Shown: piece after piece, positions 2,861 to 54,274 of the stretch
How positions within the stretch are numbered: position 1 is the first letter of the stretch
Layout of the letters: every line of letters begins with the position of its first letter
Assembly (NCBI GenBank): GCA_027331445.1
Contig: DAHWUD010000001.1
Span: forward strand, 109,157-168,596
Direction: 5' to 3'
Source: Candidatus Amesbacteria bacterium
GTDB taxonomy: Bacteria > Patescibacteriota > Microgenomatia > CAZETR01 > Amesbacteraceae
Length of the DNA stretch: 59,440 nt
The notes under the pieces: generated by a model
What the model was told of the DNA's origin: nothing
Seen by the model: the letters and a program-made list of their open reading frames with translations, nothing else
The model's database searches: none
Position numbers and translations under genes: made by a program

Positions 2861-4834
2861 ATGCCGCCCGATCGTCAACAGCCCCTTGTCCGCACCTTTT
2901 CCCAGCCGCCTCTTGACCTGGGTAAACTGCCCCGGCATAATGTGGCGTCTCCGATCATGAAAATCCTCACCGGGATCCTTATTGCCATCGTTGCCCTGGG
3001 TCTTCTGGGCTATATTTTTATCTTCCTTCCGGCCAAAGGCGTGTACACCGCCGTCAAGCAATTACAGGCCTCGGCTACCCAGGTGACCGTCTATATCAAA
3101 AATCAGGATTTGGCCGGTACCCAAAAGCAGCTGGGACAGGTCAAATCCAATTTGGCCAACGTCAGCCAAAAGCTTAAGCCGCTGGCCTGGACCCAGATCT
3201 TGCCTTTTGTCGGCCATTATTACCGGGATGCCAACCATGCCGTAAATGCCGGTACCGAAGTGCTGGCCGCCGGCGACGTGACTATCAATGCCATTGCCCC
3301 CTACGCCGACATTATTGGTCTAAAGGGCTTAGCGACCACCGGCAATGGGGAAAAGACAGCCCAGGACCGGATTAATTTTATTATCAATACCCTGGACAAA
3401 ATTAAGCCCCAATTGACCGATATTGGCAACCACCTGGAAGCCGCTCGCAAGGAAATGGATCAGATCGACCCCGCTGGCTACCCCGAAACTTTCCGCGGCG
3501 TCAAAGTCCGCGAGAACCTCACGACCGCTATCTCCCTTCTGGATCAGGCCACTTCCCTGGTGACCGATGCCAAACCGCTTTTAGAGTCGGCTCCCTACAT
3601 GCTGGGCTTGGATTCGCCGCGGACCTACCTGGTAATTTTCCAAAACGACGCCGAGCTGCGCCCCACCGGCGGCTTCATGACCGCTTACGCCATTATTTCG
3701 GTTAATAAGGGCAAGATTTCTACTCTCGACTCCGGTGATATTTATTCATTGGATGCCAAATTCAATAGCCAGATTCCCGCTCCCGACCCGATTATCAAGT
3801 ATTTGCCCAAAGTCCCGTATTGGAATCTGCGTGACATGAATCTATCACCCGACTTCAAAGTTTCTATGGACCAGTTCTACCCCAATTATCTCAAGACTGG
3901 TTCCCAAAAAGTTGACGGCATTATCGCCATTGATACCCAGGTTCTGGTAGACCTTCTCAAAGTCACAGGCCCCATCGGCGTTTCCGGGATCGGCAATTTT
4001 TCCGCCGATATCTATCCCCCCTGCAATTGTCCCCAGGTCTTTTATGCCCTGGAAGCTTTTGCCGACATCGAGGGCCCCGTAGTCTGGGATTCCGTCACCG
4101 GCCAGGTCATTGTCAAACCCCAAAACTACGGCCAGCGAAAATCTTTCATCGGCCCCATGATGTATTCCGTTTTGAGTAACGTTATGGCCCAGCCCAAGTC
4201 CAAAATGGGCCTCCTGTTCCAGTCCGCCATGGAATTGATCCAGCAAAAACATGTGCAGTTCTACTTTTTAGACCCCAACGCCCAAGCCGCCGCCGAATCG
4301 TTTAACTTGGCCGGCCGGATTGTCCCGGCCCCCCAGGATTATTTGTTGGTCGTCGACACCAACTTTGCCGGAGCCAAAACCAACGCCTGGGTTACCTACA
4401 CCGCCGACCAGAAAATTGACGTGGCCGGAGACGGCACGGTGACCAAAACCTTGACCCTGACTTACAAAAACCCCCAGCAATACTTTACTAACGCCTCCAA
4501 TAGTCTCAAGTTAAATGGCATTTTCCGTGATTGGCTGCGGGTGTACGTCCCTCAGGGCAGCAAATTGGTCAGCGCCGCGGGTTTTGAAACCGGCCAGACT
4601 ACCGGCACTGACCTCGGCAAGACTGTTTTTGAGGGCTTCTTCACCCTGACCCCCCTTAACGTCAAGACCATCACTCTCAAATACACTCTGCCTTTCAAGG
4701 CCAAGTCTCCTTTGAATCTTCTTATTCAAAAGCAGGGAGGTGCCAAGGACTTCCCCTACGACATTACCATTAACGGCCGCAAACAGTCGGAATTAATCCT
4801 CAACTCCGACAAAACTCTCAATCTGGGCTTCTAG
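2861..4834 (+). CDS. DUF4012-like membrane-anchored extracellular protein
   Basis: Single N-terminal TM, helical stalk, YLVIFQNDAELRPTGGF, LRDMNLSPDF, VDGIIAID and DTNFAGAKTN, which I recognise as the DUF4012 pattern. Confidence 0.8.
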   Translation: MPPDRQQPLVRTFSQPPLDLGKLPRHNVASPIMKILTGILIAIVALGLLGYIFIFLPAKGVYTAVKQLQASATQVTVYIKNQDLAGTQKQLGQVKSNLANVSQKLKPLAWTQILPFVGHYYRDANHAVNAGTEVLAAGDVTINAIAPYADIIGLKGLATTGNGEKTAQDRINFIINTLDKIKPQLTDIGNHLEAARKEMDQIDPAGYPETFRGVKVRENLTTAISLLDQATSLVTDAKPLLESAPYMLGLDSPRTYLVIFQNDAELRPTGGFMTAYAIISVNKGKISTLDSGDIYSLDAKFNSQIPAPDPIIKYLPKVPYWNLRDMNLSPDFKVSMDQFYPNYLKTGSQKVDGIIAIDTQVLVDLLKVTGPIGVSGIGNFSADIYPPCNCPQVFYALEAFADIEGPVVWDSVTGQVIVKPQNYGQRKSFIGPMMYSVLSNVMAQPKSKMGLLFQSAMELIQQKHVQFYFLDPNAQAAAESFNLAGRIVPAPQDYLLVVDTNFAGAKTNAWVTYTADQKIDVAGDGTVTKTLTLTYKNPQQYFTNASNSLKLNGIFRDWLRVYVPQGSKLVSAAGFETGQTTGTDLGKTVFEGFFTLTPLNVKTITLKYTLPFKAKSPLNLLIQKQGGAKDFPYDITINGRKQSELILNSDKTLNLGF

Positions 4835-24411: not shown

Positions 24412-26030
24412 AAACTGCAGCCATCCTCCGGGCAACCGATTTCCGGGAGATTAAATCCTGGTTTGCCGTCCAGACCGGCAGCAAGCTCGCAGTCCTAGCC
24501 GGTTTTATTCTGGTCATAGCCGGGCTGGAAGTCGGATTGTTTTCCGGCATGGGCTATTATTTTCGCACCCTGGCAGCCGCCCAGGATTTCGGCTATCACA
24601 CCGCCGACTATATTATCCGGGCCACTTTCCTGGTGGTCATGTGGCTGGGTATCGGCAGCAGTGCAGCGGCAACGGCAAATTTATTTTTTACCAAAAATAA
24701 AAATCTGGCCTACCTGCTGACTCTGCCGGTAGACATCTCCGACCTGGTCAGGTGGCAGACGCAAAAGACGATTACTTTCAATACTTTCCTGCTGGCTGTG
24801 CTTTTGGCTCCCTTATTGCTGGCTTTTAGGCTGACATTCGTGGGTTATTTCGACTTGGTTTTTATCCTGAGGGCAGTTCTCGGGCTATTTGGATTGGCCC
24901 TCGTCGCTACCGCATTGGGTGGCTCAATTGGCTTTCTTTTGGTCGCTGAAACCGGCCGGTCCACCCTCACCCGGTCGCTTCTGCATGTCGGTGTATTTTT
25001 GGGAATTATGGTCCTGATTTTTCGGCTCGTATTTCCCCCGGCTTTGGCCAGTCTGACTCGGGCTACCCCCTCTGCCTTTTACCCCCTTTATCAATCTCTG
25101 CCGTTGGCCCGGTCCTGGGTCCCCACCAACTGGTTGGCCGGATTAATTACCGTCGGAACCCCCGTCGACTGGCTGCTCTCCGCGGCATTGGTCATCTTTT
25201 TACTCAAATTCTATCTGTGGCTTGAGTGCCGTCTGTTTCTCACTACCTATTGGCAGGTCAATTCCCGGCCGCAGGAACAGCTCGGGTTCATCTTTGAGAC
25301 CTCGCGGCTGGATTTTGCCCGTCAAACTCCGCTCCGGGCTCTGATGACCAAAGATTTATCGGCCGTCATCCGATCGCCGGGGGAGATTGGCTATGGCGTA
25401 TTTCTGGCCTCGCTCGTAGTGTTCTTTTTTGGGCTTTTTTCCCGGGTCAGCCTCCCTGCGGGCACGCCCTTGTCCTGGATTATCCTGCTTCAGGTTTTTG
25501 CTTTTCTTGGACTAGTCTTTTTTACCAACACCTTTCTGCTGCGTCTGGCCTTTCCGGACATGGCCAAAGAAGGGGAAACTGCCTGGTATCTGTTTACCCA
25601 GCCCCTCGCCCCCGAAAAATTATGGCTCTCAAAAGTGCTGCTGGCCCAGCTTTTAATTTTGCCATTTCTGTTTGTCGCGGCTACGGTCTGGCTCTTTTTG
25701 AGTTTCACCGGCCGCTATTATCTGCTCCTGGCCGGCTGCTCACTGATCATGATTATTATTATCACCCTCCTGCAGGCCTTTCTGGGCCTGATCAATCCCA
25801 ATTTCTCCGAAAGTCACAGTGCCGAAAAAATCAGTACCAGTTACATGGGTCTGATTACCCTGGTCATCACCACCACCCTGGCGCTGGGCGTAGCCGCCGG
25901 TCTTGATCAATATCTGTCGGGAAATGCCTTCGGAATCCTAACCATTACCGGGAGTGTAATTATCGGCTTAGTGCTGGTCGGAATCTTGGGCGCCGTGTCC
26001 CGCTCCGGCCTCCGTCGCTACGAATTTTGA
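24408..26030 (+). CDS. Putative ABC exporter permease (multi-TM, fused ABC-2-like halves)
   Basis: Many hydrophobic segments, 4-nt overlap with the ATPase, EG.(T)AWYL...P...K-type motif. Confidence 0.75.
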   Translation: MKTAAILRATDFREIKSWFAVQTGSKLAVLAGFILVIAGLEVGLFSGMGYYFRTLAAAQDFGYHTADYIIRATFLVVMWLGIGSSAAATANLFFTKNKNLAYLLTLPVDISDLVRWQTQKTITFNTFLLAVLLAPLLLAFRLTFVGYFDLVFILRAVLGLFGLALVATALGGSIGFLLVAETGRSTLTRSLLHVGVFLGIMVLIFRLVFPPALASLTRATPSAFYPLYQSLPLARSWVPTNWLAGLITVGTPVDWLLSAALVIFLLKFYLWLECRLFLTTYWQVNSRPQEQLGFIFETSRLDFARQTPLRALMTKDLSAVIRSPGEIGYGVFLASLVVFFFGLFSRVSLPAGTPLSWIILLQVFAFLGLVFFTNTFLLRLAFPDMAKEGETAWYLFTQPLAPEKLWLSKVLLAQLLILPFLFVAATVWLFLSFTGRYYLLLAGCSLIMIIIITLLQAFLGLINPNFSESHSAEKISTSYMGLITLVITTTLALGVAAGLDQYLSGNAFGILTITGSVIIGLVLVGILGAVSRSGLRRYEF

Positions 26031-28678
26031 TCCACAAACTTGTCCTGATAATCTTGTATCATGTCGTACTTCAGCTTCTGCATTTGTCCTACCAGAATCT
26101 GTTCGGTTGTCTCTGGCAATTCCGCCCACAAATCTGATTTCCAGTCACTGGTTAGTCTGTCAGCCCTTTCCATCAGGACCCGCATCAGAGCTTCGTACCT
26201 GGATCTTTGGTCAGAACATGTTCCCATCAGGTTTTCCAAATCAATTTGATATGTTTTCAGCTGAGCTTCCAATAAAGACTCCCGTCCTTTGGCCAAACCG
26301 GAAGTCGTCGCCGCCTCCTTCATGTATCCAAGCCGGTTTGTAGCCTGTTCCAGGACATTTTCCCCCAAATTTCGTTCATCCATGTCTACGTTAAAAATAA
26401 AGCTGTTCTCACTTCCCTCCGTCGCCATTCCCCATTTTTCTTCCCACGCCTTATCCGCTCCTTTAATCCTGCCGAAATAAACTGTGTAATTACCGGTTTC
26501 CTGCCCCACCGTATTTACCCTCCATACCCCAGCCACCGGGTCAGTTAATAAAATGATGTTATCTTCCGGTACATACTTAACACCGCTCGGATCGACTAAT
26601 TCAAAATCTATCGGGGAAGCCACGGTTACCACCAGGACTTTATCACTTTCCGTTACTGGCTCGACCACCGGTTCACCCTGAACCCCCAACACCGTCAGAA
26701 GTTTGTCCTGTACATCGGCGTTATTTAGCAAGCCAATGTGCCTCACGTTATTGATATTGTAGTTTTCCACACTTCCGTTGACTTGACTGCTGGTCACTAG
26801 CACAGTCTCGTCCCCGTCAGCCGTCTCCGTGGAAACGGAGATTCCGTCCGCCCACCAGCCGAGATTTCGTTCCAGCCATGTCGTTGGTTTCACCGTCAGG
26901 AATCTGGCCGTACCCCACCCGCTCCCGCTTATAGTCCAAAGTCGATTAGAAATACCCGGCAGCCCATCCGCCATTGCCGGCAGATAACTATTTTTAAACT
27001 TCATTTGCGTTAAGGGCACCGCTTCTCCGCTCGCGTTTTTTATAAAGTCAAATGTCGGCCACAGGTTAAGTAGCGAAGGGACAGTTTTCTGTACCGTATT
27101 TACGTCGGTTGTGTAATGGCTCATGTTAGCAACTACCACCGCTTGCATCACTGCTCCCACCGGTCCGGGAAAATCGGCAAAATTTGCCGCCTCCCAAACT
27201 CGATAAGCTTTAACACTGCCGCTATGCGGTGAGCCGACGGTGATTAATTTATCAATCTTTTCCCCGTGCGTATCCTGAACATAATCCCTTGCAATCAACC
27301 CCCCCATGCTGTGTCCCACCAGCGAAATCTTCTGTGCCTCCGGGTTTTCTTTTAATACCTTGTCCACAAATTTTGCCAGGTCGTCAGCGTTGCTGGCGAT
27401 TTCCTTTCGCCAGTCATAGAAGTAAACAAATAAATCCTTTCCCAGTTTATAGCCGGAGTTTTCTAAAGCTGAAATAAACCCGTTATATAATGGTTTGCAA
27501 TAAACGGGGCACCATCCCCAGCCTGAATTGGGCACCGGAACTCCGTGCATCAAGCTCAAATAATTAAAACTTGCCAGCATCCCAGGTACCAAGATAACCG
27601 GCTCATGTGAAAGATGGGGACTGGGAGTAGGTGTTACCTCCTCCGGCAATGAAACTTTGGTCACGTAAACCTTATCTGTATAGTTTGAGTCAGAAGCATC
27701 ATAACCGCCGACTAAGTACAGATAATTCCCCATTGCCGTCAACGATCCGCAACAAGTTGGATGTGGAAGCATAATATCACTAATATTCCATTTTGTAATT
27801 CGGCCATCGCTCTCAACTTTTGCGTAGTAAGTATCTCTTCCAGAGACAATAAAAACATACCTTCCGATTGTCACACCTTGAAATGCTAGGGCTGGACTAG
27901 GAAGTGGAGCTTGCACCTCCCAGGAAGAAAGATTACCTGAATCATCAACTCTCGCTCGGTAAACCGAATCAAGCAAACTAAAACTATTATCCCGACCACC
28001 AACTATATACAAATAATTTCCCATTGCAAACATATAATGGCTGAGAAGCGGAGTGGGTAAGGATGCGACTTGAACCCAAGGGCCTACGGCTGACCCAATG
28101 ATGTCAGAACGGTAAACTATATTGGAAAAGATGTAGTTCGAGTAATTTCCGTTAAACCCACCGGAAATATAAATTTTATTATTTAAAATTGCAGCTGATG
28201 CTTGAGATACAGGGCTTGTAAATGCGGTTCTCTCATTCCAATGGCTAATTCCGTTTTGACTATCAAGATACGCAGCATAAACATTATTAAAGCTCGCGAC
28301 TGGTCCATTTTCATACTCCTCAAACCCTCCAATAGAGTACACATAATTACTGTCAATTGCATACGTGGACCAAAGCGTCGGCTTTGGGAATTTTATATTT
28401 GACAGCGACCACTCATTGATTTGACCTTCCGCACTAGGTGTAGCAACTAGAATATCCGAACGCATACCATACAGATATCCTGACCCTCCCACAACATAAA
28501 CATTATTTTGAAAGGGAAAAGAAAACTGGCCGTTTAGAATAAATGGAAGATTCTTAGTCGGAGTCCAGCTACTAATTATTTCAGCTTTAGCTGGGTCTAA
28601 ATATCCAGCAAACCAAAATACAAACGCAAATAAAACAAACCAAACAACACCCTTAATTCGTATATCCCAGTTCACCAA
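26018..28678 (-). CDS. Secreted Kelch-repeat beta-propeller / alpha-beta hydrolase (LCAT/PGAP1-like lipase) fusion
   Basis: Signal peptide ending AKA. Six blades (VYVVGG, VYSIGG, IYISGG, LYIVGG, VFIVSG, LYLVGG), TPTPSP linker, PVILVPG, YDWR, GHSMGG, DGDETV, HIGLL. Confidence 0.8.
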   Translation of the reverse strand: MVNWDIRIKGVVWFVLFAFVFWFAGYLDPAKAEIISSWTPTKNLPFILNGQFSFPFQNNVYVVGGSGYLYGMRSDILVATPSAEGQINEWSLSNIKFPKPTLWSTYAIDSNYVYSIGGFEEYENGPVASFNNVYAAYLDSQNGISHWNERTAFTSPVSQASAAILNNKIYISGGFNGNYSNYIFSNIVYRSDIIGSAVGPWVQVASLPTPLLSHYMFAMGNYLYIVGGRDNSFSLLDSVYRARVDDSGNLSSWEVQAPLPSPALAFQGVTIGRYVFIVSGRDTYYAKVESDGRITKWNISDIMLPHPTCCGSLTAMGNYLYLVGGYDASDSNYTDKVYVTKVSLPEEVTPTPSPHLSHEPVILVPGMLASFNYLSLMHGVPVPNSGWGWCPVYCKPLYNGFISALENSGYKLGKDLFVYFYDWRKEIASNADDLAKFVDKVLKENPEAQKISLVGHSMGGLIARDYVQDTHGEKIDKLITVGSPHSGSVKAYRVWEAANFADFPGPVGAVMQAVVVANMSHYTTDVNTVQKTVPSLLNLWPTFDFIKNASGEAVPLTQMKFKNSYLPAMADGLPGISNRLWTISGSGWGTARFLTVKPTTWLERNLGWWADGISVSTETADGDETVLVTSSQVNGSVENYNINNVRHIGLLNNADVQDKLLTVLGVQGEPVVEPVTESDKVLVVTVASPIDFELVDPSGVKYVPEDNIILLTDPVAGVWRVNTVGQETGNYTVYFGRIKGADKAWEEKWGMATEGSENSFIFNVDMDERNLGENVLEQATNRLGYMKEAATTSGLAKGRESLLEAQLKTYQIDLENLMGTCSDQRSRYEALMRVLMERADRLTSDWKSDLWAELPETTEQILVGQMQKLKYDMIQDYQDKFVDQNS

Positions 28679-45442: not shown

Positions 45443-47226
45443 AAACATCTAGGACCATGACTAATCAGCAGATTGCAGAGCTGCTGCGGTCCGTTGCCGC
45501 CGCCCTGGAACTGTCTTCCGGGGAGGACAATCGCTTCCGCATCATTGCCTACGAGCGGGCCGCCGACGCCGTCGAACATGCCACTTCCGAGATCAAGGAC
45601 TTGTGGGACGACGGCAAGCTTCAGGATTTACCCGGAATCGGGGAGGGGATTGCCTCTTCCTTGGATGAATTATTCACGACCGGCCGGGTCCGCCATTTCA
45701 ATGCCATACTCCAGCCCTTTTCTCCGGCCTTATTCACCTTGTTATCCGTCCCCGGCATCGGTCCCAAAACCGCCTACAAGCTCACCAAAGCCCTGGGTAT
45801 CTCCCAGCCTCATTCAGCCATAGCCAGGCTGGAAAAAGCCGCTAAGGCCGGCCAGATCCGCCTTATTGAGGGGTTTGGCGCGGATTCCGAAGCCGATATT
45901 CTCAAAAGCATCGCCGAATTAAAAGGCCGTTCCACCCGCCTGCTGCTCCCGCTGGCCCAGGGCCTCGCCCAGTCTGTTCTGGACTGGCTGACCAAAATTC
46001 CCCAGGTCAAACGGGTCGATTTTCTGGGCAGCCTGCGCCGTCAGGCCTCCACGGTAGGGGATATTGACCTGGCTGTAGCCAGCGATGATGCCGCGGCGGT
46101 CATCCGGCACTTCACCGCCTATCCCAAAAAAATCCGCGTCCTGGAAGCCGGGGAACATACGGCATCTCTCATCCTTCCCAACGACATCCAGGTTGATCTG
46201 ATGGTCCAGCCTCCGGCTTCCTACGGTTCACTCCTGCAGCATTTCACCGGATCCAAGCATCACAATATCGCCCTGCGTGAGTTGGCCCTTAAGCGCGGCT
46301 TGTCGCTCTCCGAATACGGCATCAAAGACAAAAATCGCCTGCGCCGATTTTCGTCCGAAGAAGATTTTTATAAGTTTTTAGGTTTTGACTGGATTCCGCC
46401 CGAACTTCGGGAAGACACCGGAGAGTTGGCTGCCGCCAAAATTCACCGCCTCCCTCGCCTGGTCGAACTGGCAGACATCAAAGGCGACCTCCAAATTCAT
46501 AGTGACATTGATGTCGAACCCAGTCACGACTTAGGCGAAAGTTCCCTCACACAACTCGCCGCTGTCGCCCGTGATTTAGGCTATCAGTACATTGGACTGA
46601 CCGAGCACAACCCCAGTATTTCCGGTCACACTTCTAACAAGATAATAGACCTGATAAAGCGAAAAACAAATATTATTGAACAATTTAAAACTAATATGAA
46701 AAATAATCATGAAAATAAACTTGAGATTTTCAACGGTTTGGAGATCGATATTCAGCCTGACGGCACCAGGGCCCTGCCGGATGCCGCACTGGACCTATTG
46801 GACTATGCCTGTGTTTCCCTGCACAGCAGTTTTCGTCTCTCCCGCGCCGATATGACCAAAAGAGTGTTAGCTGCTCTCGACCATCCCCGGGTCCTTTTCC
46901 TGGCCCACCCCACGGCGCGCCTGCTTAACGAACGGGAGGGAGTGGAATTGGACTGGGAAACAATTTTCGACTATTGTCTTAAAAACCATAAGTGGTTGGA
47001 AATTGACGCCTGGCCGAACCGCCTTGATCTGCCCGACTCCCTTGTCAGAACGGCCGTGAAACAAGGCGTGAAACTTATTATTGATACCGACAGCCATTCC
47101 GCTGACCATCTGTCCTTCATGCGCTTTGGCATCTCCGTAGCGCGTCGCGGCTGGGCGACCGCTGCTGATATAATAAACACATTGCCATTAACCCAATTTT
47201 CAAAACTCATTAAAGGAGGTGAATAA
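45439..47226 (+). CDS. polX: DNA polymerase X / PHP fusion
   Basis: FRIIAYERAA, LPGIGEGIA, VPGIGPKTA HhH motifs, GSLRR..TVGDIDL, QVDL, FTGSKHHN. PHP motifs TEH, GLEIDI, AHPT, IDTDSH. Confidence 0.93.
   Translation: MKTSRTMTNQQIAELLRSVAAALELSSGEDNRFRIIAYERAADAVEHATSEIKDLWDDGKLQDLPGIGEGIASSLDELFTTGRVRHFNAILQPFSPALFTLLSVPGIGPKTAYKLTKALGISQPHSAIARLEKAAKAGQIRLIEGFGADSEADILKSIAELKGRSTRLLLPLAQGLAQSVLDWLTKIPQVKRVDFLGSLRRQASTVGDIDLAVASDDAAAVIRHFTAYPKKIRVLEAGEHTASLILPNDIQVDLMVQPPASYGSLLQHFTGSKHHNIALRELALKRGLSLSEYGIKDKNRLRRFSSEEDFYKFLGFDWIPPELREDTGELAAAKIHRLPRLVELADIKGDLQIHSDIDVEPSHDLGESSLTQLAAVARDLGYQYIGLTEHNPSISGHTSNKIIDLIKRKTNIIEQFKTNMKNNHENKLEIFNGLEIDIQPDGTRALPDAALDLLDYACVSLHSSFRLSRADMTKRVLAALDHPRVLFLAHPTARLLNEREGVELDWETIFDYCLKNHKWLEIDAWPNRLDLPDSLVRTAVKQGVKLIIDTDSHSADHLSFMRFGISVARRGWATAADIINTLPLTQFSKLIKGGE
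47166..47174 (+). promoter_or_regulatory. Extended -10 promoter inside the polX 3' end, candidate for lemA-htpX-clpB
   Basis: TGaTATAAT, formed by ATA Ile codons that look uncommon in this window. AAAGGAGGTG SD before lemA. Confidence 0.6.
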
Positions 47227-47229
47227 TCA

Positions 47230-47814
47230 ATGTTGTGGATTTTAATCATTTTAGCCATAGTTCTTCTCTACTTAGCCACGGTTTACAATAGCCTGGTCTC
47301 GCAAAAAACCCATATCAAAGCCTCGATCCAGGAAATTGGTAATCAGCTCAAACGCCAGGCTGACCTGATTCCCAATCTGGAATCGTCCGCCCAGGGCTAT
47401 CTCAAGCACGAGAAGGATATCCTCCGGCTGCTGGCTGAAGCCAGAAAATCCGTCCAATCCGCTGTCAATTCAGGTAATCTCAAATCCCTCTCGGACGCGG
47501 GAGACAAAGTGGCCCAGCTGCTGCCCAAAATTCAGGTGGTCATGGAAAGCAACCCCCAGTTAAAAGGGGCTGATGTCATCACCAACCTCATGGATGAGTT
47601 GCGGGACACTTCAGATAAGGTCATGTACGCCAGGAGGACCCTGATCGATCTCACGGCCGATTACAATATCAAAATCTCCGTCTTCCCTTCCAACCTGGTA
47701 GCAAATTTGTTTCACTTTGGCCCGGAAGCCGGACTCCAGACCCCCACCGATGGCAATTTCCTGCAGGTATCAGACTCTGATACCCAAACCCCTAAGGTGG
47801 CGTTCAAAAGCTGA
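47230..47814 (+). CDS. lemA: LemA family protein
   Basis: N-terminal TM, YNSLV, QLKRQADLIPNL, ESNPQLK, YN..I..FPSNLVA. Adjacent to htpX. Confidence 0.9.
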   Translation: MLWILIILAIVLLYLATVYNSLVSQKTHIKASIQEIGNQLKRQADLIPNLESSAQGYLKHEKDILRLLAEARKSVQSAVNSGNLKSLSDAGDKVAQLLPKIQVVMESNPQLKGADVITNLMDELRDTSDKVMYARRTLIDLTADYNIKISVFPSNLVANLFHFGPEAGLQTPTDGNFLQVSDSDTQTPKVAFKS

Positions 47815-47872: not shown

Positions 47873-48799
47873 ATGGTCAATGTTTATGAGGCCGTATCTG
47901 CCAACAAACGCCGAAGCTGGGTGGTGATTGTTTGTTTTGTGGCCTTTATTCTGGGGGCTACCTATCTCATTACCAAAGGCTTTGCCGCTTATTACGGCTA
48001 TCCTTCCTCCGGATTGGAATTCGCCGGTCTGGCCCTGATTATCTCCGGGATCAGCAGCTTCGTTTCCTACTACTACAGCGACAAAATCATCCTCTCCATG
48101 TCCCACGCCCGTCCGGCAGACAGACGCCGGGATTTTGATTTCTACACCGTCACGGAAAATTTGTCTCTGGCCGCCGGCATTCCTATGCCCAAGCTCTACG
48201 TCATCGACGATCCGGCCATGAATGCTTTTTCTACCGGTCGGGATCCGGCCCATGCAGCCGTTTGTGCCACCTCTGGCCTCCTCGCCCGCCTCAACCGCAC
48301 CGAGCTGGAAGGCGTCATTGGCCACGAATTGACTCATATCACCGACTATGACACCCGCCTCATGTCCATTGTCGTCGTTCTCGTGGGTTTGATTACCCTT
48401 CTGGGCGATTGGCTCATTCGCTCTGCCTGGTGGGGTGGCGGCCGCCGCAGCCGGGATTCCGAGGGCGAGAGCGGCTTGTTTATCATCATTGGCTTCGTCC
48501 TGGCCATCCTTTCACCGATTATTGCGCAGCTTATCCAGCTAGCCATCTCCCGCCGCCGCGAATACCTGGCCGACGCCGGCAGCGTTAACCTCACCCGTCA
48601 GCCCAGCGGCCTAATCAGTGCCCTCAAAAAACTGTCCGCTGATAACGAGCCGTTGGATGTGGCCAACAAAGCGACGGCTCATCTGTACATCGTCAACCCC
48701 CTGAAAGGCCACACGGGAGCCGTCTCCTGGTTCGCCAACCTCTTTAATACCCACCCGCCCATTGCCGACCGCATCGCCGCACTACAGGCTATGTCTTAG
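47873..48799 (+). CDS. htpX: Zinc metalloprotease HtpX (M48)
   Basis: NAFSTGRDP, ELEGVIGHELTHI (HExxH), SRRREYLAD, THPP..DRI. Confidence 0.93.
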   Translation: MVNVYEAVSANKRRSWVVIVCFVAFILGATYLITKGFAAYYGYPSSGLEFAGLALIISGISSFVSYYYSDKIILSMSHARPADRRRDFDFYTVTENLSLAAGIPMPKLYVIDDPAMNAFSTGRDPAHAAVCATSGLLARLNRTELEGVIGHELTHITDYDTRLMSIVVVLVGLITLLGDWLIRSAWWGGGRRSRDSEGESGLFIIIGFVLAILSPIIAQLIQLAISRRREYLADAGSVNLTRQPSGLISALKKLSADNEPLDVANKATAHLYIVNPLKGHTGAVSWFANLFNTHPPIADRIAALQAMS

Positions 48800-48804
48800 C
48801 GCCC

Positions 48805-51366
48805 ATGGAACCCCAGAACTTCACCACCGCTGCCCAGTCCGCCCTCGAATTTGCCCTTCAAAGTGCTTCCCAAAACCACCACCCGAAAGTAACTTCCCTC
48901 CACCTGGGTCTGGCCCTGTTATCTGATCCGGATTCGCTGATCGCCACCGCCCTTTCCCGTTTTAATCTCCGGGTTTCGGACATTACCGGCCGGATAAATG
49001 ACCAAATATCCCGACTTCCCCGGGTTTCAACCGATCAAATGCCGAAAATTAGTCCTGAACTTACCTCTGTCCTGCACCAAGCCGCCCGGGAAGCAAAAAA
49101 TCTCAATGATACCTACATAAGCAGGGAACACCTATTCCTAGCACTTCTCTTGACAGAGTGCCAAATATCCTCTATTCTAAAAAACAGCAGTTTAAATTAT
49201 GCTTCTGCTAAACAAATTATCATGAGTGAACGCGGAGCGCAAGCAGCAACTGACCCCGAAGCCGAAAGTCGTTATCAGGCCTTGGCCAAATACACCCTTA
49301 ATCTTACAAATCAGGCCAAAGACGGTCGGCTTGACCCGGTTATCGGCCGGGATGATGAGGTTCGCCGGGTGATGCAGATCCTCTCCCGCCGGACCAAGAA
49401 CAACCCTGTACTTATAGGTGATCCGGGCGTCGGTAAAACCGCCATTGTTGAGGGTTTGGCCCAGCGTATTGTCGCCGGTGATGTCCCGGAGACCCTCAAG
49501 GGTAAAGAGCTTCTGTCTCTGGACCTGGCGGCTCTTCTGGCCGGGGCCAAATTCCGGGGGGAGTTTGAAGACCGCCTCAAAGCCGTGCTTAAGGAAATCG
49601 AAGCCGGCAGCGGTCGGTATCTGCTGTTCATGGATGAATTGCATACTTTGGTAGGTGCGGGAGCTGCCGAAGGCGCCGTCGACGCGGCCAATATCCTCAA
49701 GCCCGCCCTGGCCAGGGGGCTACTCCACGCTATCGGGGCCACCACTATCCGGGAATATCGCCAATACATAGAAAAAGACGCCGCCCTGGAACGGCGTTTT
49801 CAGCCCGTTTTGGTCGGGGAGCCGTCTATCGAGGATAGCATTGCCATACTGCGTGGTCTCAAGGAAAAATATGAACTCCACCACGGAGTCCGCATTACCG
49901 ACGATGCCATTATCGCTGCCGTCACCCTTTCCACCCGCTACATTCCCGATCGTTTTCTGCCCGACAAAGCCATAGATCTAATCGACGAGGCCACCAGCAG
50001 CCTCAGAATGGATATTGACTCTCAGCCCTCCGAGCTGGACGCTCTTAAACGGCGGGCCACTCAGATCGAAATCGAGTTAGCGGCTCTCAAACGCGAGCGT
50101 GAAGAGACCGTGAAAACTCGCCGGGCCGATTTGCAGCGCCAGCTGGCCGATCTAAAAGAATCCATTTCTTCCTGGACTTCCCGCTGGCAGCGGGAAAAGG
50201 ACCTCATCCAAAAGATTCGGGAACTGAGCCGGACCCAGGATCGCCTCCGTCAGGAGTTGGAAACTGCCGAACGCCAGATTCAGCTTGAAAAAGCCGCCGA
50301 AATCAAATACGGTCAGCTGCCGGCCCTGCAAAAACAACAGCAGGATCTGCAAAACCGATTAGCCGCCATTCCCCAGGAAGACCGCGTCCTGCGGGAAGAA
50401 GTCACCGAAGACGACATCGCCAAAGTCGTCGCCCGCTGGACCGGCATCCCGGTTTCCCGCCTCGTATCTTCCGAAAAAAACCGTCTCACCGACCTGGAAA
50501 AAGAACTCTCAAAACTCATCGTCGGTCAGGAAGAGGCGGTTACCCAGGTAGCCAAAGCCATTCGGCGTTCCCGCGCCGGCATTGCCGATGTTAACCGCCC
50601 CATTGCCTCCTTTATCTTTTTAGGTCCTACCGGCGTAGGTAAAACCGAACTCGCCAAAGCTTTGGCCCAAACCCTTTTTTCCGACGAAAACGCCTTGATC
50701 AGGATTGATCTCTCCGAATATCAGGAGCCGCATTCTGTTGCCCGGTTGATCGGGGCTCCTCCCGGTTATGTGGGATTTGAAGAAGGGGGTCAGCTCACCG
50801 AATCCGTGCGCCGCCGGCCTTATTCGGTTATTCTTTTCGATGAAATTGAAAAAGCCCATCGGGATATCTTCAATGTCTTTCTTCAGATTTTGGACGACGG
50901 CCGGCTCACCGACGGTAAGGGCCGGGTCATCAATTTCAAAAACACCATCATTATCATGACCAGCAATTTGGGTTCCGATCTGGTCCGGGAAAATCCTCCG
51001 GACCTTCCTCAAAAACTCAACGCCCTGTTGCATCAGACCTTCCGTCCGGAGTTTCTCAATCGTGTAGATCAAATCATTGTCTTCGACGCTCTGACTCCGG
51101 CTCAGTTGGAAAAAATTGTCGATTTACAGATTCAATTGGTCTCGCAAAGATTGTCAGGCCAGAATATTTCCTTGTCCGTTACTTCGGCCGCTAAAAAATT
51201 GCTATCCCGCATCGGCTATGACCCAGATTATGGAGCCCGGCCGCTCAAACGGGCTATCCAGGACACTATTTTGGACGAGCTGGCCCTGCGGATTATCGAG
51301 AACCAAATAAAACCGGGTGACACCGTCAAAGTTGATGCCAAAGGCGAGAAAATTATGCTAAACTGA
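48805..51366 (+). CDS. clpB: Chaperone ClpB
   Basis: Two Clp_N repeats, GDPGVGKT and GPTGVGKT Walker A motifs, long middle-domain coiled coil, GARPLKR. Confidence 0.97.
49138..49164. promoter_or_regulatory. CIRCE (HrcA operator) inside clpB
   Basis: CTAGCACTT-N9-GAGTGCCAA versus consensus TTAGCACTC-N9-GAGTGCTAA (15/18, exact 9-nt spacer). Confidence 0.8.
49150..49178 (+). promoter_or_regulatory. Sigma70 promoter inside clpB, overlapping the CIRCE
   Basis: TTGACA (49150-49155), 17 nt, TATTCT (49173-49178), in an AT-rich patch. In-frame ATG at 49222. Confidence 0.75.
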
Positions 51367-51653: not shown

Positions 51654-53055
51654 ATCCCTTTCCGACCTGACTATCTTTGCGGCCAGGACCGGTCTGACTT
51701 CCCGGGCCTTCAGCAGTTTTGACTTAGTAACGGCCTGTCTCGACCGCATTAAACAGCTCAACCCTGAATTCCATGCCTTTTTAGCCCTTAACGACTCGGC
51801 CTTGACCGAAGCCAAGGCTGCCGACCTAAAAATCTCTGCCGGAGAAGACTTGCCCCTGCTGGGCGTCCCCATAGCCGTTAAGGATAATTTTCTTACTCAG
51901 GGAATTGTAACCACTGCCGCATCAAAGGTATTGGATAATTATTTACCTCAGTATGACGCCACGGTTGTGAAAAAGATGAAAAATGCCGGAGCCATTGTTC
52001 TTGGTAAAACCAATATGGACGCCTGGGCTCACGGATCTTCCACCGAAACCTCCGACTTTGGCCCCACCCTGAATCCCTGGAACTCCAATTATCTCCCGGG
52101 GGGCTCTTCTGGTGGATCCGCCTCCGCGGTTGCAGCGGGCATGTGTCCGGCCGCCATCGGCAGTGAAACCGCCGGATCAATCCGCCAGCCGGCCGCCTGG
52201 TGCGGGGTCACCGGTTTTAAACCCACATATGGCCGCGCCAGTCGTTATGGAGTAATTGCCATGGCCTCATCCACCGACTCCCCCGGTCCGATTACTAAAA
52301 CCGTAGCCGACGCCCGGCTTCTGGCCGGTGTGCTGGCCGGCCCCGATCCTCTGGATGCTACTTCCTCTCCCCGGCCCGCCGAGGAAATTCTGGCCCCCGG
52401 CCCGGACCTGAAACACCTAAAAATCGGCCTGCCCGCATCCTATCTCCTGCCTCAAATGCGGTCGGATGTCAAACAACTTATCCTCGATGCCGCCCTCCAG
52501 TTTGAGAAATTAGGGGCCACCGTTACCGAGATTTCCCTTCTTGACCCCAAATATTCTATCGGCGTTTATACAATTATCCAGAGAAGCGAGGTCTCCTCGA
52601 ACCTGGCCCGTTTTGACGGCATTCGCTATGGCCACGATCGGTCAGCCTTTGGGCCGGAGGCCAAACGCCGGATTATGCTAGGAACTTTTGCTCTTTCCTC
52701 CGGCTATTATGACCGATACTACCACAAAGCCGAACAGGTACGCACCCTGGTCATTCGGGATTTTGCCCGCGCCTTCACCGATGTGGATTTGATTATCGGC
52801 CCCACCTCCCCCGGACCCGCCCTGCCGGTGGGAGCTAGTTTAAATCAGCCCATGTTCGGAGAAATGGAAGATATCCTGGTCGAGCCCAGCAGTATTGCCG
52901 GTCTGACCGGGATCAATGTTCCCTGCGGATTCGTCGATTCCCTGCCCATCGGTTTGCAAATTATTGGCCCGCAATTTGGGGAAGCGGTTGTCCTGTCCGC
53001 CGCCGCCGCTTACCAAAATTCCACTCCCTGGCATGAACACGTCCCCGTCCTTTAA
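51646..53055 (+). CDS. gatA: Glu/Asp-tRNA amidotransferase subunit A
   Basis: IAVKDN, GKTNMD, PGGSSGGSA, GSETAGSIRQPAA.CG, KRRIMLG. Confidence 0.97.
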   Translation: MTKSLSDLTIFAARTGLTSRAFSSFDLVTACLDRIKQLNPEFHAFLALNDSALTEAKAADLKISAGEDLPLLGVPIAVKDNFLTQGIVTTAASKVLDNYLPQYDATVVKKMKNAGAIVLGKTNMDAWAHGSSTETSDFGPTLNPWNSNYLPGGSSGGSASAVAAGMCPAAIGSETAGSIRQPAAWCGVTGFKPTYGRASRYGVIAMASSTDSPGPITKTVADARLLAGVLAGPDPLDATSSPRPAEEILAPGPDLKHLKIGLPASYLLPQMRSDVKQLILDAALQFEKLGATVTEISLLDPKYSIGVYTIIQRSEVSSNLARFDGIRYGHDRSAFGPEAKRRIMLGTFALSSGYYDRYYHKAEQVRTLVIRDFARAFTDVDLIIGPTSPGPALPVGASLNQPMFGEMEDILVEPSSIAGLTGINVPCGFVDSLPIGLQIIGPQFGEAVVLSAAAAYQNSTPWHEHVPVL

Positions 53056-54274
53056 AGAGCTTTTGGCTCTTCCCAACTTCAGAAAGCTCTGGACTTCCCA
53101 GCTGCTCTCCCAACTCACCATCAATTTGGTTAATTTTTCCATTCTTATCCATATTTATGCTTATACCCGTTCTTCCATCGCCGTTTCTCTCCTTTGGGTA
53201 GCCTACTCCCTGCCATCGCTGTTCTTAGCGCCTTTTTCCGGAGTGATCGTTGACCGCTTCAGCCTGAAGCGTATGATGCTCGTCACCAATATTCTGCAGG
53301 GGTTGACCGTCCTCACTTTTTTGGCCTTCACCCGCCATATCTTCCTTCTCTATTCCCTGGTTTTTATCTATTCTTTTCTGGATCAATTTTATGTCCCGGC
53401 TCAACAGTCCAGTGTCCCCTGGCTGGTTCCTCCTCAGCTGCTGACCGCAGCTAACGGGATTTTCTTTCTTACCCAGCAGGCCTCATTTCTCCTGGGGTTT
53501 GGTTTGGCCGGATTACTTATCCAATTTATCGGCCAGACGCCCACCATTATCCTGGCCGCCTCGTTTTTGTTTATCGCCGCCGCCGCCGTATTTCTGTTGC
53601 CCGCGGACACAGAAAGAATTCGTGTAGAAAAATATGCCCTGACCCGGTTTTTGGAGGACTTTAAGTCGGGCTATGAGTTTGTTAAAAACCACCATCAAAT
53701 CCGCTTCCCGGTTTATCTGTCCGTTGCCGCTCAGATTATGCTGACGGTGATCACCATTACCATGCCGTCATATACGCGGGAAGTTCTGGGGGTAAATTTA
53801 AGCCGGGCCAGTTTGCTTTTGATTATTCCCGCCGGCCTGGCAGCCGTTATTTTTACCTACCTGTTGCCCCGCCTCCTGAAAAATCGCCGTAAAATTCACA
53901 TCGTCAAATTCGGGACTCTCTCCGCAGCGATTTCCCTCATGCTCCTGGCCTGGCTCGGGTTTACCGGTGGCTACCGTTTTGTCCTGTCTATCCTCACCGC
54001 CATTGGTTTGGGTATCTCTTTTGCCGCCGTGATTACCCCGGCTCAGACTGCCATTCAGGAACACACCCCGCCCGAATACCGCGGCCGGATTTATAGCTTT
54101 CTCGGTTTGCTTATGACTATCTTTACCCTGATCCCGCTTCTGGCCGCTGCGACTCTGGCCGATCTGATCGGAATTGCACCTATTATGGGCGCCTTTTCTT
54201 TGCTAATATTTATCGGTTATCTGATGATTCACTACAAAGGAGACTATGTCCTGGCAAATGGTTTTGGGTTTTGA
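53033..54274 (+). CDS. MFS transporter, 12-TM, exporter-like (start re-set to ATG 53033)
   Basis: NFRKLWTSQLLSQL, G.IVDRFSLKRMM motif A, Q.HTP.EYRGRI. Confidence 0.88.
   Translation: MNTSPSFKELLALPNFRKLWTSQLLSQLTINLVNFSILIHIYAYTRSSIAVSLLWVAYSLPSLFLAPFSGVIVDRFSLKRMMLVTNILQGLTVLTFLAFTRHIFLLYSLVFIYSFLDQFYVPAQQSSVPWLVPPQLLTAANGIFFLTQQASFLLGFGLAGLLIQFIGQTPTIILAASFLFIAAAAVFLLPADTERIRVEKYALTRFLEDFKSGYEFVKNHHQIRFPVYLSVAAQIMLTVITITMPSYTREVLGVNLSRASLLLIIPAGLAAVIFTYLLPRLLKNRRKIHIVKFGTLSAAISLMLLAWLGFTGGYRFVLSILTAIGLGISFAAVITPAQTAIQEHTPPEYRGRIYSFLGLLMTIFTLIPLLAAATLADLIGIAPIMGAFSLLIFIGYLMIHYKGDYVLANGFGF

Follow-up and report, generated by a model that had tools for sequence, protein, structure and literature searches.

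A probable CIRCE-type operator and promoter within the clpB coding sequence

The window analysed here is the whole 59,440-nt stretch of contig DAHWUD010000001.1 from Candidatus Amesbacteria bacterium, an ultra-small member of the Patescibacteria, or candidate phyla radiation (CPR). It contains the ClpB chaperone gene, clpB, in the one-strand gene order NUDIX-PolX-lemA-htpX-clpB-gatC-gatA-MFS-gatB-dnaE (MFS, major facilitator superfamily). The codons for the N-domain of this ClpB contain an inverted repeat that resembles the inverted repeat controlling chaperone expression (CIRCE), the operator of the heat-shock repressor HrcA, and this repeat is interlaced with promoter-like hexamers. An in-frame ATG downstream of these hexamers begins a nested open reading frame (ORF) for a ClpB without N-domain. 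The features are as follows.

48805-51366, + strand: clpB, 853 aa, intact N-domain (Pfam Clp_N twice, AAA, AAA_lid_9, AAA_2 and ClpB_D2-small)
49138-49146, + strand: CIRCE left arm, CTAGCACTT (7/9), codons L112-A113-L114; most relatives read TTAGCACTC
49150-49155, + strand: -35 hexamer TTGACA, CIRCE spacer positions 4-9, codons L116-T117
49156-49164, + strand: CIRCE right arm, GAGTGCCAA (8/9), codons E118-C119-Q120
49173-49178, + strand: -10 hexamer TATTCT, 17 nt past the -35; third base of codon 123 plus codons I124 and L125
49185-49221, + strand: predicted AT-rich leader of ~37 nt without Shine-Dalgarno (SD) sequence; putative transcription start site near 49185
49222-51366, + strand: nested ORF for an N-domain-less ClpB of 714 aa, Met140 to stop; the in-frame ATG at 49222 is codon 140

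Codons 112-120 of clpB, as read from the window sequence, are CTA GCA CTT CTC TTG ACA GAG TGC CAA. They consist of CTAGCACTT (49138-49146), the spacer CTCTTGACA (49147-49155) and GAGTGCCAA (49156-49164), and match TTAGCACTC-N9-GAGTGCTAA at 15 of 18 positions. This direct reading confirms the initial annotation of this DNA with respect to the arms, the 15/18 match, the TTGACA in the spacer, the 17-nt distance and the TATTCT, and also with respect to the in-frame ATG at 49222, which is Met140 and yields a 714-aa product. The right arm departs from CIRCE by reading TGCCAA instead of TGCTAA, and this departure is forced, because TGC TAA would be an in-frame stop. The AT-rich stretch reported in the same annotation is likewise present: the GC content is 0.36-0.38 at 49100-49249, as compared with ~0.55 in the remaining clpB, and resembles that of the intergenic DNA upstream of lemA.

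The element in clpB is the sole CIRCE match with three or fewer mismatches in the 59.4-kb window, in which 0.02 matches are expected; two of 100 shuffles gave one. At this threshold, the scan of the window detects no CIRCE upstream of lemA, of htpX or of the start of clpB, in agreement with what had been noted before. The two arms are separated by exactly 9 nt, as is characteristic of CIRCE, and the repeat is placed on the predicted promoter of a chaperone gene, as CIRCE is placed on or beside the promoters of chaperones and proteases. What is unusual is its location inside a coding sequence. When the region from 44 to 56 kb is scanned for promoters, TTGACA (49150-49155)-17 nt-TATTCT (49173-49178) scores 10/12 and shares the top rank with four other sites. 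Its hexamers and their spacing are those of a sigma-70-type promoter (16-18 nt), and they are conserved beyond the constraints on neighbouring positions.

Conservation of the element beyond the protein code

A scan of a genome collection with this ClpB gives no close relative, the best ClpB identity being 57% or lower, and reveals canonical CIRCE sequences upstream of clpB in several phyla. Orthologues were obtained as the syntenic loci L081-L085, by protein search and exact look-up, and as 80 further Patescibacteria clpB loci, by a metagenome scan with an N-domain alignment. Across 91 related clpB loci, the number of mismatches to CIRCE at codons 112-120 is bimodal. Twenty rows, which are the window and 19 loci and comprise 17 distinct sequences, have one to three mismatches, one locus has four, and the remainder have 6-14. 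The ClpB proteins of the relatives with the internal element are 47-81% identical to that of the window. The consensus of the internal element is [TCA]TAGC[AG][CA]T[CT]-NNN-T[TC]GAC[ATC]-GA[GC]TGCCAA, in which the C of TGCCAA is the sole deviation from CIRCE that is fixed, and the best internal sites in full-length relatives (L087 and L108) match CIRCE at 17 of 18 positions. The variants GACTGC and TTAGCAATC are also present in related bacteria, in bona fide CIRCEs upstream of clpB. A single ClpB clade with 100% support comprises the loci with the internal element, in which the synteny PolX-lemA-htpX-clpB-gatCA is kept and clpB is not preceded by a promoter gap. The loci with an upstream CIRCE fall in other clades of the ClpB tree.

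The 17 distinct sequences were aligned by codon, and the fraction of identical codons was determined among pairs that share the amino acid. This fraction is 0.738 for residues 111-124, as compared with 0.398 for the entire gene and with a mean of 0.397 (standard deviation 0.065) for 827 sliding windows along the 853-codon gene. Residues 111-124 rank at the top of these sliding windows, and the top 15 all overlap the same region. Thus, the alignment of orthologues that had been proposed in the initial annotation shows conservation of the element at the synonymous sites of 17 distinct, diverged sequences. TGC119 and CAA120 do not vary (17/17). Leu116 is always encoded by TTG (16/17, the other sequence, L092, having TCG for Ser), and ACA of the -35 hexamer is present in 11 of 17 sequences. 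GCA113 is found in 16 of 17 sequences and CTC114 in 14 of the 15 with Leu at this position. The third base of codon 123, which is position 1 of the -10 hexamer, is T in 16 of 17 sequences, although eight different amino acids are encoded.

Each protein was also recoded at random with the codon usage of its own gene. For the composite CIRCE/-35/-10 target, P is 0.0068 or lower in all 17 sequences, 1e-4 or lower in ten of them and 0.0001 in the window, and for the CIRCE arms alone, which are defined a priori, P ranges from 0.0001 to 0.024 across the 17 sequences; these per-sequence values are not independent owing to shared ancestry, though the divergence is deep (proportion of synonymous differences, pS, 0.59-0.86). 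The arms of the window, given the peptide LALLLTECQ, are closer to CIRCE than 97.6% of the synonymous recodings (P=0.024). In the ClpB proteins outside the internal-element group, residues 117-120 (T-E/D-C-Q in the group) vary freely. This result suggests that the T-E/D-C-Q motif is dictated by the DNA element, and not the reverse.

These observations also make it scarcely credible that the element arises by chance from a conserved protein motif in the second Clp_N repeat. The amino acids alone do yield about 12 of the 18 CIRCE positions, and LAL and IL are common in ClpB N-domains. However, given the protein, its codons depart strongly from a random choice, the T-E/D-C-Q residues are free to vary outside the clade, and the element persists in loci where the protein motif is gone. 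These N-domain-less loci, described below, effectively refute the explanation by chance.

Two members of the clade without the internal element have weak CIRCE-like sites with three mismatches upstream of clpB, namely L104 (positions 3947-3973), in which htpX is missing and the site contains TTGACA, and L158 (-51 from clpB). The operator may have moved between the two positions more than once. L137 has both an upstream CIRCE (one mismatch, -72) and the internal element, and its ClpB, which sits on a very long branch (0.94), resembles the upstream-CIRCE clade at the N-terminus and the internal-CIRCE clade in the middle. This locus is excluded as evidence, because its contig of 3.8 kb is possibly an assembly chimera or a recombinant.

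Retention of the element in relatives without the N-domain

A search was made with ClpB residues 140-853, and the 119 closest ClpBs were considered. Clp_N is lacking in 34 of them, which are ~680-737 aa long and are scattered among full-length forms. The N-domain losses amount to 18 changes by parsimony, at least 13 of which are forced by well-supported branches; genes truncated at contig ends may have raised this count, seven cases having been verified. All of the seven loci fetched (L167-L173) contain a genuine short clpB, with the N-domain deleted or full of stops. In L167-L172, the order is lemA-htpX-gap-short clpB-gatC, with gaps of 206, 614, 375, 585, 49 and 87 nt, respectively. The N-domain is deleted, decayed to stop-ridden remnants (L168 and L169) or replaced (L170). 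In L170, a 175-aa ORF without Pfam match (2155-2682, - strand) occupies the place of the lost N-domain, and the CIRCE-promoter lies between this ORF and the short clpB. The window itself is not of this type, which is also the type of the Mollicutes, since both Clp_N repeats are present and the frame of 853 codons is open.

Directly upstream of the short ORF, all seven loci carry a CIRCE-like repeat with one to four mismatches, TTGACA in its spacer and, after exactly 17 nt, a -10 hexamer. The versions of this hexamer are TATTCT, TATGCT, TATCTT, TAATTT, TTAGAT and TATCAT. The 49-nt gap between htpX and clpB in L171 is essentially the element alone. Where the element has become non-coding, the right arm can return to the consensus TGCTAA, as in L172 and L173, and the site of L173 has a single mismatch to CIRCE. 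In five of these relatives (L167, L170, L171, L172 and L173), the ATG is located 6-8 nt past the -10 hexamer. This leaderless layout is sensible only if transcription starts from the retained promoter. In L168 and L169, a leader of 42-48 nt without SD sequence is kept, similar in length to the 43 nt of the window, despite a dead N-domain. Therefore, initiation without SD sequence at the equivalent of Met140 is evidently sufficient in this lineage.

ClpB of ~700-737 aa is thus also encoded by stand-alone genes in relatives; in the seven loci, the element is non-coding and precedes a gene for a ClpB of ~710 aa. In the full-length members, the ratio of nonsynonymous to synonymous differences (pN/pS) is 0.39-0.55 for the N-domain and 0.13-0.22 elsewhere. 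This two- to three-fold faster evolution of the N-domain agrees with a relaxed constraint on it and with its repeated loss.

CIRCE upstream of clpB in other Patescibacteria

In 30 loci of other Patescibacteria, a CIRCE with zero or one mismatch is located within 290 nt upstream of clpB. Thirteen of these sites have TTGAC in the spacer, followed by a -10 hexamer, while in the others the -10 hexamer is located in the spacer or just before the operator. Two loci, L134 and L161, have the order CIRCE-clpB-hrcA (245 aa)-grpE-CIRCE-dnaK. These results indicate that clpB regularly belongs to the HrcA regulon in this phylum, where an operator wrapped round the -35 hexamer is a standard layout. The upstream promoters (L105, L124, L139, L141 and others) have the same half-sites, the same 9-nt spacer with TTGACA in it and a -10 hexamer ~17 nt downstream as the element in clpB, and their leaders are short or absent. 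They differ from it in that they are intergenic and have the -35 hexamer at spacer positions 1-6, whereas in the intragenic version this hexamer occupies positions 4-9 and a fixed T-to-C change avoids the stop codon.

A hidden Markov model built from 120 HrcA sequences was searched against all ORFs of the window and of 173 loci. It matches only L134 and L161; no hrcA is found in the window or in the fetched loci of the clade. L134 (3960-8516) and L161, with the same layout, are Gracilibacteria/Abawacabacteria-like contigs. Both CIRCEs are perfect, the first has TATAAT in its spacer, clpB leads the hrcA operon, and hrcA is a short form. The HrcA homologues of L134 are mostly Gracilibacteria-like.

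Predicted translation start of the short form

In all 17 clade sequences, an in-frame start codon (ATG or GTG) lies within residues 138-149; in the window, it is Met140. The window reads ...aaacaaattatcATG in this region, with neither an SD sequence nor GTG148. Met140 as an internal start led by an SD sequence is therefore rejected for the window. In contrast to the window, L111, L108 and L119 contain codons for R-G-G (AGA GGA GG) that provide AGGAGG 7-8 nt ahead of GTG148; a similar SD sequence is found in L089, 11 nt before ATG149. The position and design of this device are those of the Val149 start of Escherichia coli, which suggests that it is ancient. Internal translation and internal transcription may coexist in the clade, and the window has signals for the latter only. 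Thus, the contrast with E. coli drawn in the initial annotation stands for the window, where Met140 lacks an SD sequence, but not for the entire clade, because some members keep AGGAGG-N7-GTG148 and the two routes are not mutually exclusive.

The predicted leader at 49185-49221 is no more structured than its shuffles (z=0.40). The out-of-frame AUG at 49199 opens an upstream ORF of eight codons (MLLLNKLS, 49199-49225), the TGA of which overlaps the ATG of Met140 (ATGA). A comparable out-of-frame ATG arises from N-Y-D codons in L168. The upstream ORF of the window is probably incidental, because L081 has none.

Proposed regulation and alternative explanations

The features upstream of clpB are as follows.

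47199-47227, + strand: promoter-like TTCAAA-17-AATAAT in the AT-rich gap upstream of lemA, found by the promoter scan; function putative
47230-47814, + strand: lemA (Pfam LemA, 2.3e-33; syntenic in relatives)
47873-48799, + strand: gene for an htpX-like M48 protease (Pfam Peptidase_M48, 6.4e-30; synteny)

The site upstream of lemA is presumed from its sequence to be the promoter of a lemA-htpX-clpB read-through transcript encoding full-length ClpB. Because the stop codon of htpX is only 5 nt before the start of clpB, clpB has no promoter gap of its own.

According to the proposed mechanism, codons 112-125 would double as a sigma-70-type promoter, TTGACA-17-TATTCT, with the -35 hexamer within a CIRCE-type repeat as the HrcA operator. 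In unstressed cells, the repressor bound to the operator would block the -35 hexamer, and clpB would be read only by read-through from the lemA-htpX promoter, yielding full-length ClpB. Once HrcA is inactivated, as occurs under heat or proteotoxic stress, transcription would begin near 49185, and the first in-frame AUG of the new mRNA would be that of Met140 (49222), yielding the 714-aa ClpB without N-domain. The bound repressor might, speculatively, also hinder the read-through from lemA-htpX, as suggested in the initial annotation. The nested unit would then be equivalent to the CIRCE-controlled, N-domain-less clpB of the Mollicutes, but contained within a full-length gene. Binding of HrcA, induction by heat, the start near 49185 and the use of Met140 are points that we infer from the sequence. 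An HrcA-controlled internal promoter in clpB that makes a separate mRNA for an N-domain-less ClpB is the probable explanation (probability of roughly 0.72). This was the core idea of the initial annotation, and it receives strong support from the comparative sequence evidence, because the element is conserved at synonymous sites, the CIRCE/-35 architecture is found upstream of clpB elsewhere, and the element is retained in seven N-domain-less relatives.

Several observations weigh against this explanation. The site of the window is the weakest of its clade (15/18), and its -10 hexamer, TATTCT, matches the consensus at only four of six positions. Met140 lacks an SD sequence, although the same genome uses one at lemA (AAGGAGGTG at 47213-47221), and the out-of-frame AUG at 49199 lies within the predicted leader. 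The lack of hrcA in the window and the fetched clade loci counts in the same direction, as do the shared ancestry behind the P-values and the possible contribution of contig ends to the loss count. In three metatranscriptomes of the mine-drainage study whose metagenome contains this DNA, the organism is not present, and only conserved pieces of 31-46 nt from other organisms are mapped.

It is unlikely that the repeat serves as an operator only, at which HrcA acts as a roadblock or attenuator of lemA-htpX-clpB read-through without any promoter firing, and that the short isoform arises by internal translation. Read-through does exist, since clpB follows htpX so closely, and the E. coli-like AGGAGG-N7-GTG148 of several clade members would provide the internal start. 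However, an operator alone has no need for the -35 hexamer and the T at position 1 of the -10 hexamer, which are conserved at synonymous sites, nor does it account for the ATG placed 6-8 nt past the -10 hexamer in N-domain-less relatives; the window itself has neither an SD sequence nor GTG148. Even less probable is a genuine promoter whose repeat binds some regulator other than canonical HrcA, or the absence of HrcA from the lineage, in which case the switch would answer a signal other than that of the HrcA/GroEL circuit. The three mismatches of the window site and the outcome of the hrcA search would fit such a regulator, but the half-sites are those of CIRCE, relatives reach 17/18 (L087 and L108) or a single mismatch (L173), and the variants GACTGC and TTAGCAATC also occur in bona fide upstream CIRCEs beside hrcA-containing operons.

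An action of the repeat at the RNA level, in which its hairpin in the mRNA tunes the stability or translation of the full-length message or pauses ribosomes at the domain boundary, is very improbable. In Bacillus subtilis, CIRCE influences the stability of the mRNA that contains it, and the repeat of the window can fold (-6.2 kcal/mol, z=-1.8). This fold is weak, however, the invariant TTGACA is in the loop, the conserved T of the -10 hexamer is outside, and leaderless genes retain the element upstream, where it would not be transcribed. The RNA hairpin is rejected for these reasons. No compensatory changes that keep the pairing but not the sequence are seen.

The odds are slightly in favour of a wider view, in which a heat-shock-regulated gene lies within a gene, the operator has shaped the protein, and the dual-coding state is a stepping stone to repeated loss of the N-domain. 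The clade-specific T-E/D-C-Q would then be the translation of the CIRCE right arm, and each independent N-domain loss in CPR would leave a compact, often leaderless CIRCE-clpB as in the Mollicutes.

Comparison with known systems

ClpB of the Mollicutes lacks the N-domain. In Mycoplasma gallisepticum, clpB, dnaK and lon, along with dnaJ_2, are controlled by HrcA/CIRCE (PMC4245973). The window and the Mollicutes are alike in having a CIRCE operator on clpB in a genome-reduced bacterium, and the predicted 714-aa product has the same make-up as mollicute ClpB. They differ in that the mollicute operator is intergenic, upstream of a gene that is simply without N-domain, whereas the operator and promoter of the window are located in codons 112-125 of an intact clpB, so that the gene could give two products and its protein sequence is constrained by the DNA element (T-E/D-C-Q).

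Long and short forms of ClpB are present in many bacteria, the N-truncated isoforms are known to be functional, and the reason for keeping both forms is unclear (PMC6168691). ClpB95 and ClpB80 (Val149) of E. coli and ClpB and ClpB-deltaN of Mycobacterium tuberculosis are produced from one mRNA by internal translation (PMC6168691). As in these species, a single gene would give full-length and N-domain-less ClpB in the window, with the short form starting in the linker between the N-domain and nucleotide-binding domain 1 (NBD1). In E. coli and M. tuberculosis, however, this is a translational choice on a single transcript, while the window has no SD sequence or GTG and instead carries, 43 nt upstream of Met140, a predicted promoter with repressor site, for which a separately regulated unit is proposed. 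The window is not assigned to the E. coli type of internal translation, because it lacks both the SD sequence and GTG148. The long and short forms of Vibrio cholerae Fha, the short one made by internal translation (PMC13389060), are similar in that one locus yields a second functional isoform through an ORF nested in frame, but an internal repressor-controlled promoter is proposed for clpB.

HrcA/CIRCE, CIRCE-controlled clpB and the ClpB long/short isoforms made by internal translation are already known. An intragenic CIRCE with promoter, or HrcA in CPR, is not described in the literature searched, in line with the initial annotation, which knew of no description of the arrangement. Within this literature, what appears to be new is the operator-promoter in the N-domain codons, its conservation across a CPR clade and, after repeated loss of the N-domain, its persistence as the sole promoter.

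The clade appears to reach both ClpB products by a transcriptional route with its own stress-sensing operator. A separate transcriptional route to the same two products argues that the isoform pair is adaptive, and according to the proposal it is the short form that stress should induce. The locus would also be a natural case of a regulatory element and a protein sequence that share nucleotides under dual selection. The relatives that have lost the N-domain but kept the promoter are natural knock-outs and illustrate how clpB genes without N-domain can come about. As regards annotation, these results warn that operators and promoters in compact genomes can sit inside coding sequences, and that ClpB calls of ~710 aa beside htpX are real genes and not truncations.

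Other genes of the window

Apart from clpB and htpX, no heat-shock regulator or chaperone is found in the Pfam annotation of the window. The remaining genes include the dcw cluster and those for glycosyltransferases, isoleucyl-tRNA synthetase (IleRS), ParB and similar proteins. The MFS gene (52916-54274) between gatA and gatB is present in the window, L081, L084, L168, L170 and L172 and absent in L082, L167, L169 and L171. The listed MFS ORF of the window overlaps gatA by 140 nt, and the gene calls of the relatives suggest a later start (413 aa). At 26018-28678 (- strand), the window encodes an 886-aa protein with Kelch repeats and an LCAT/alpha-beta-hydrolase (lipase-like) domain, which is unusual for a CPR genome.

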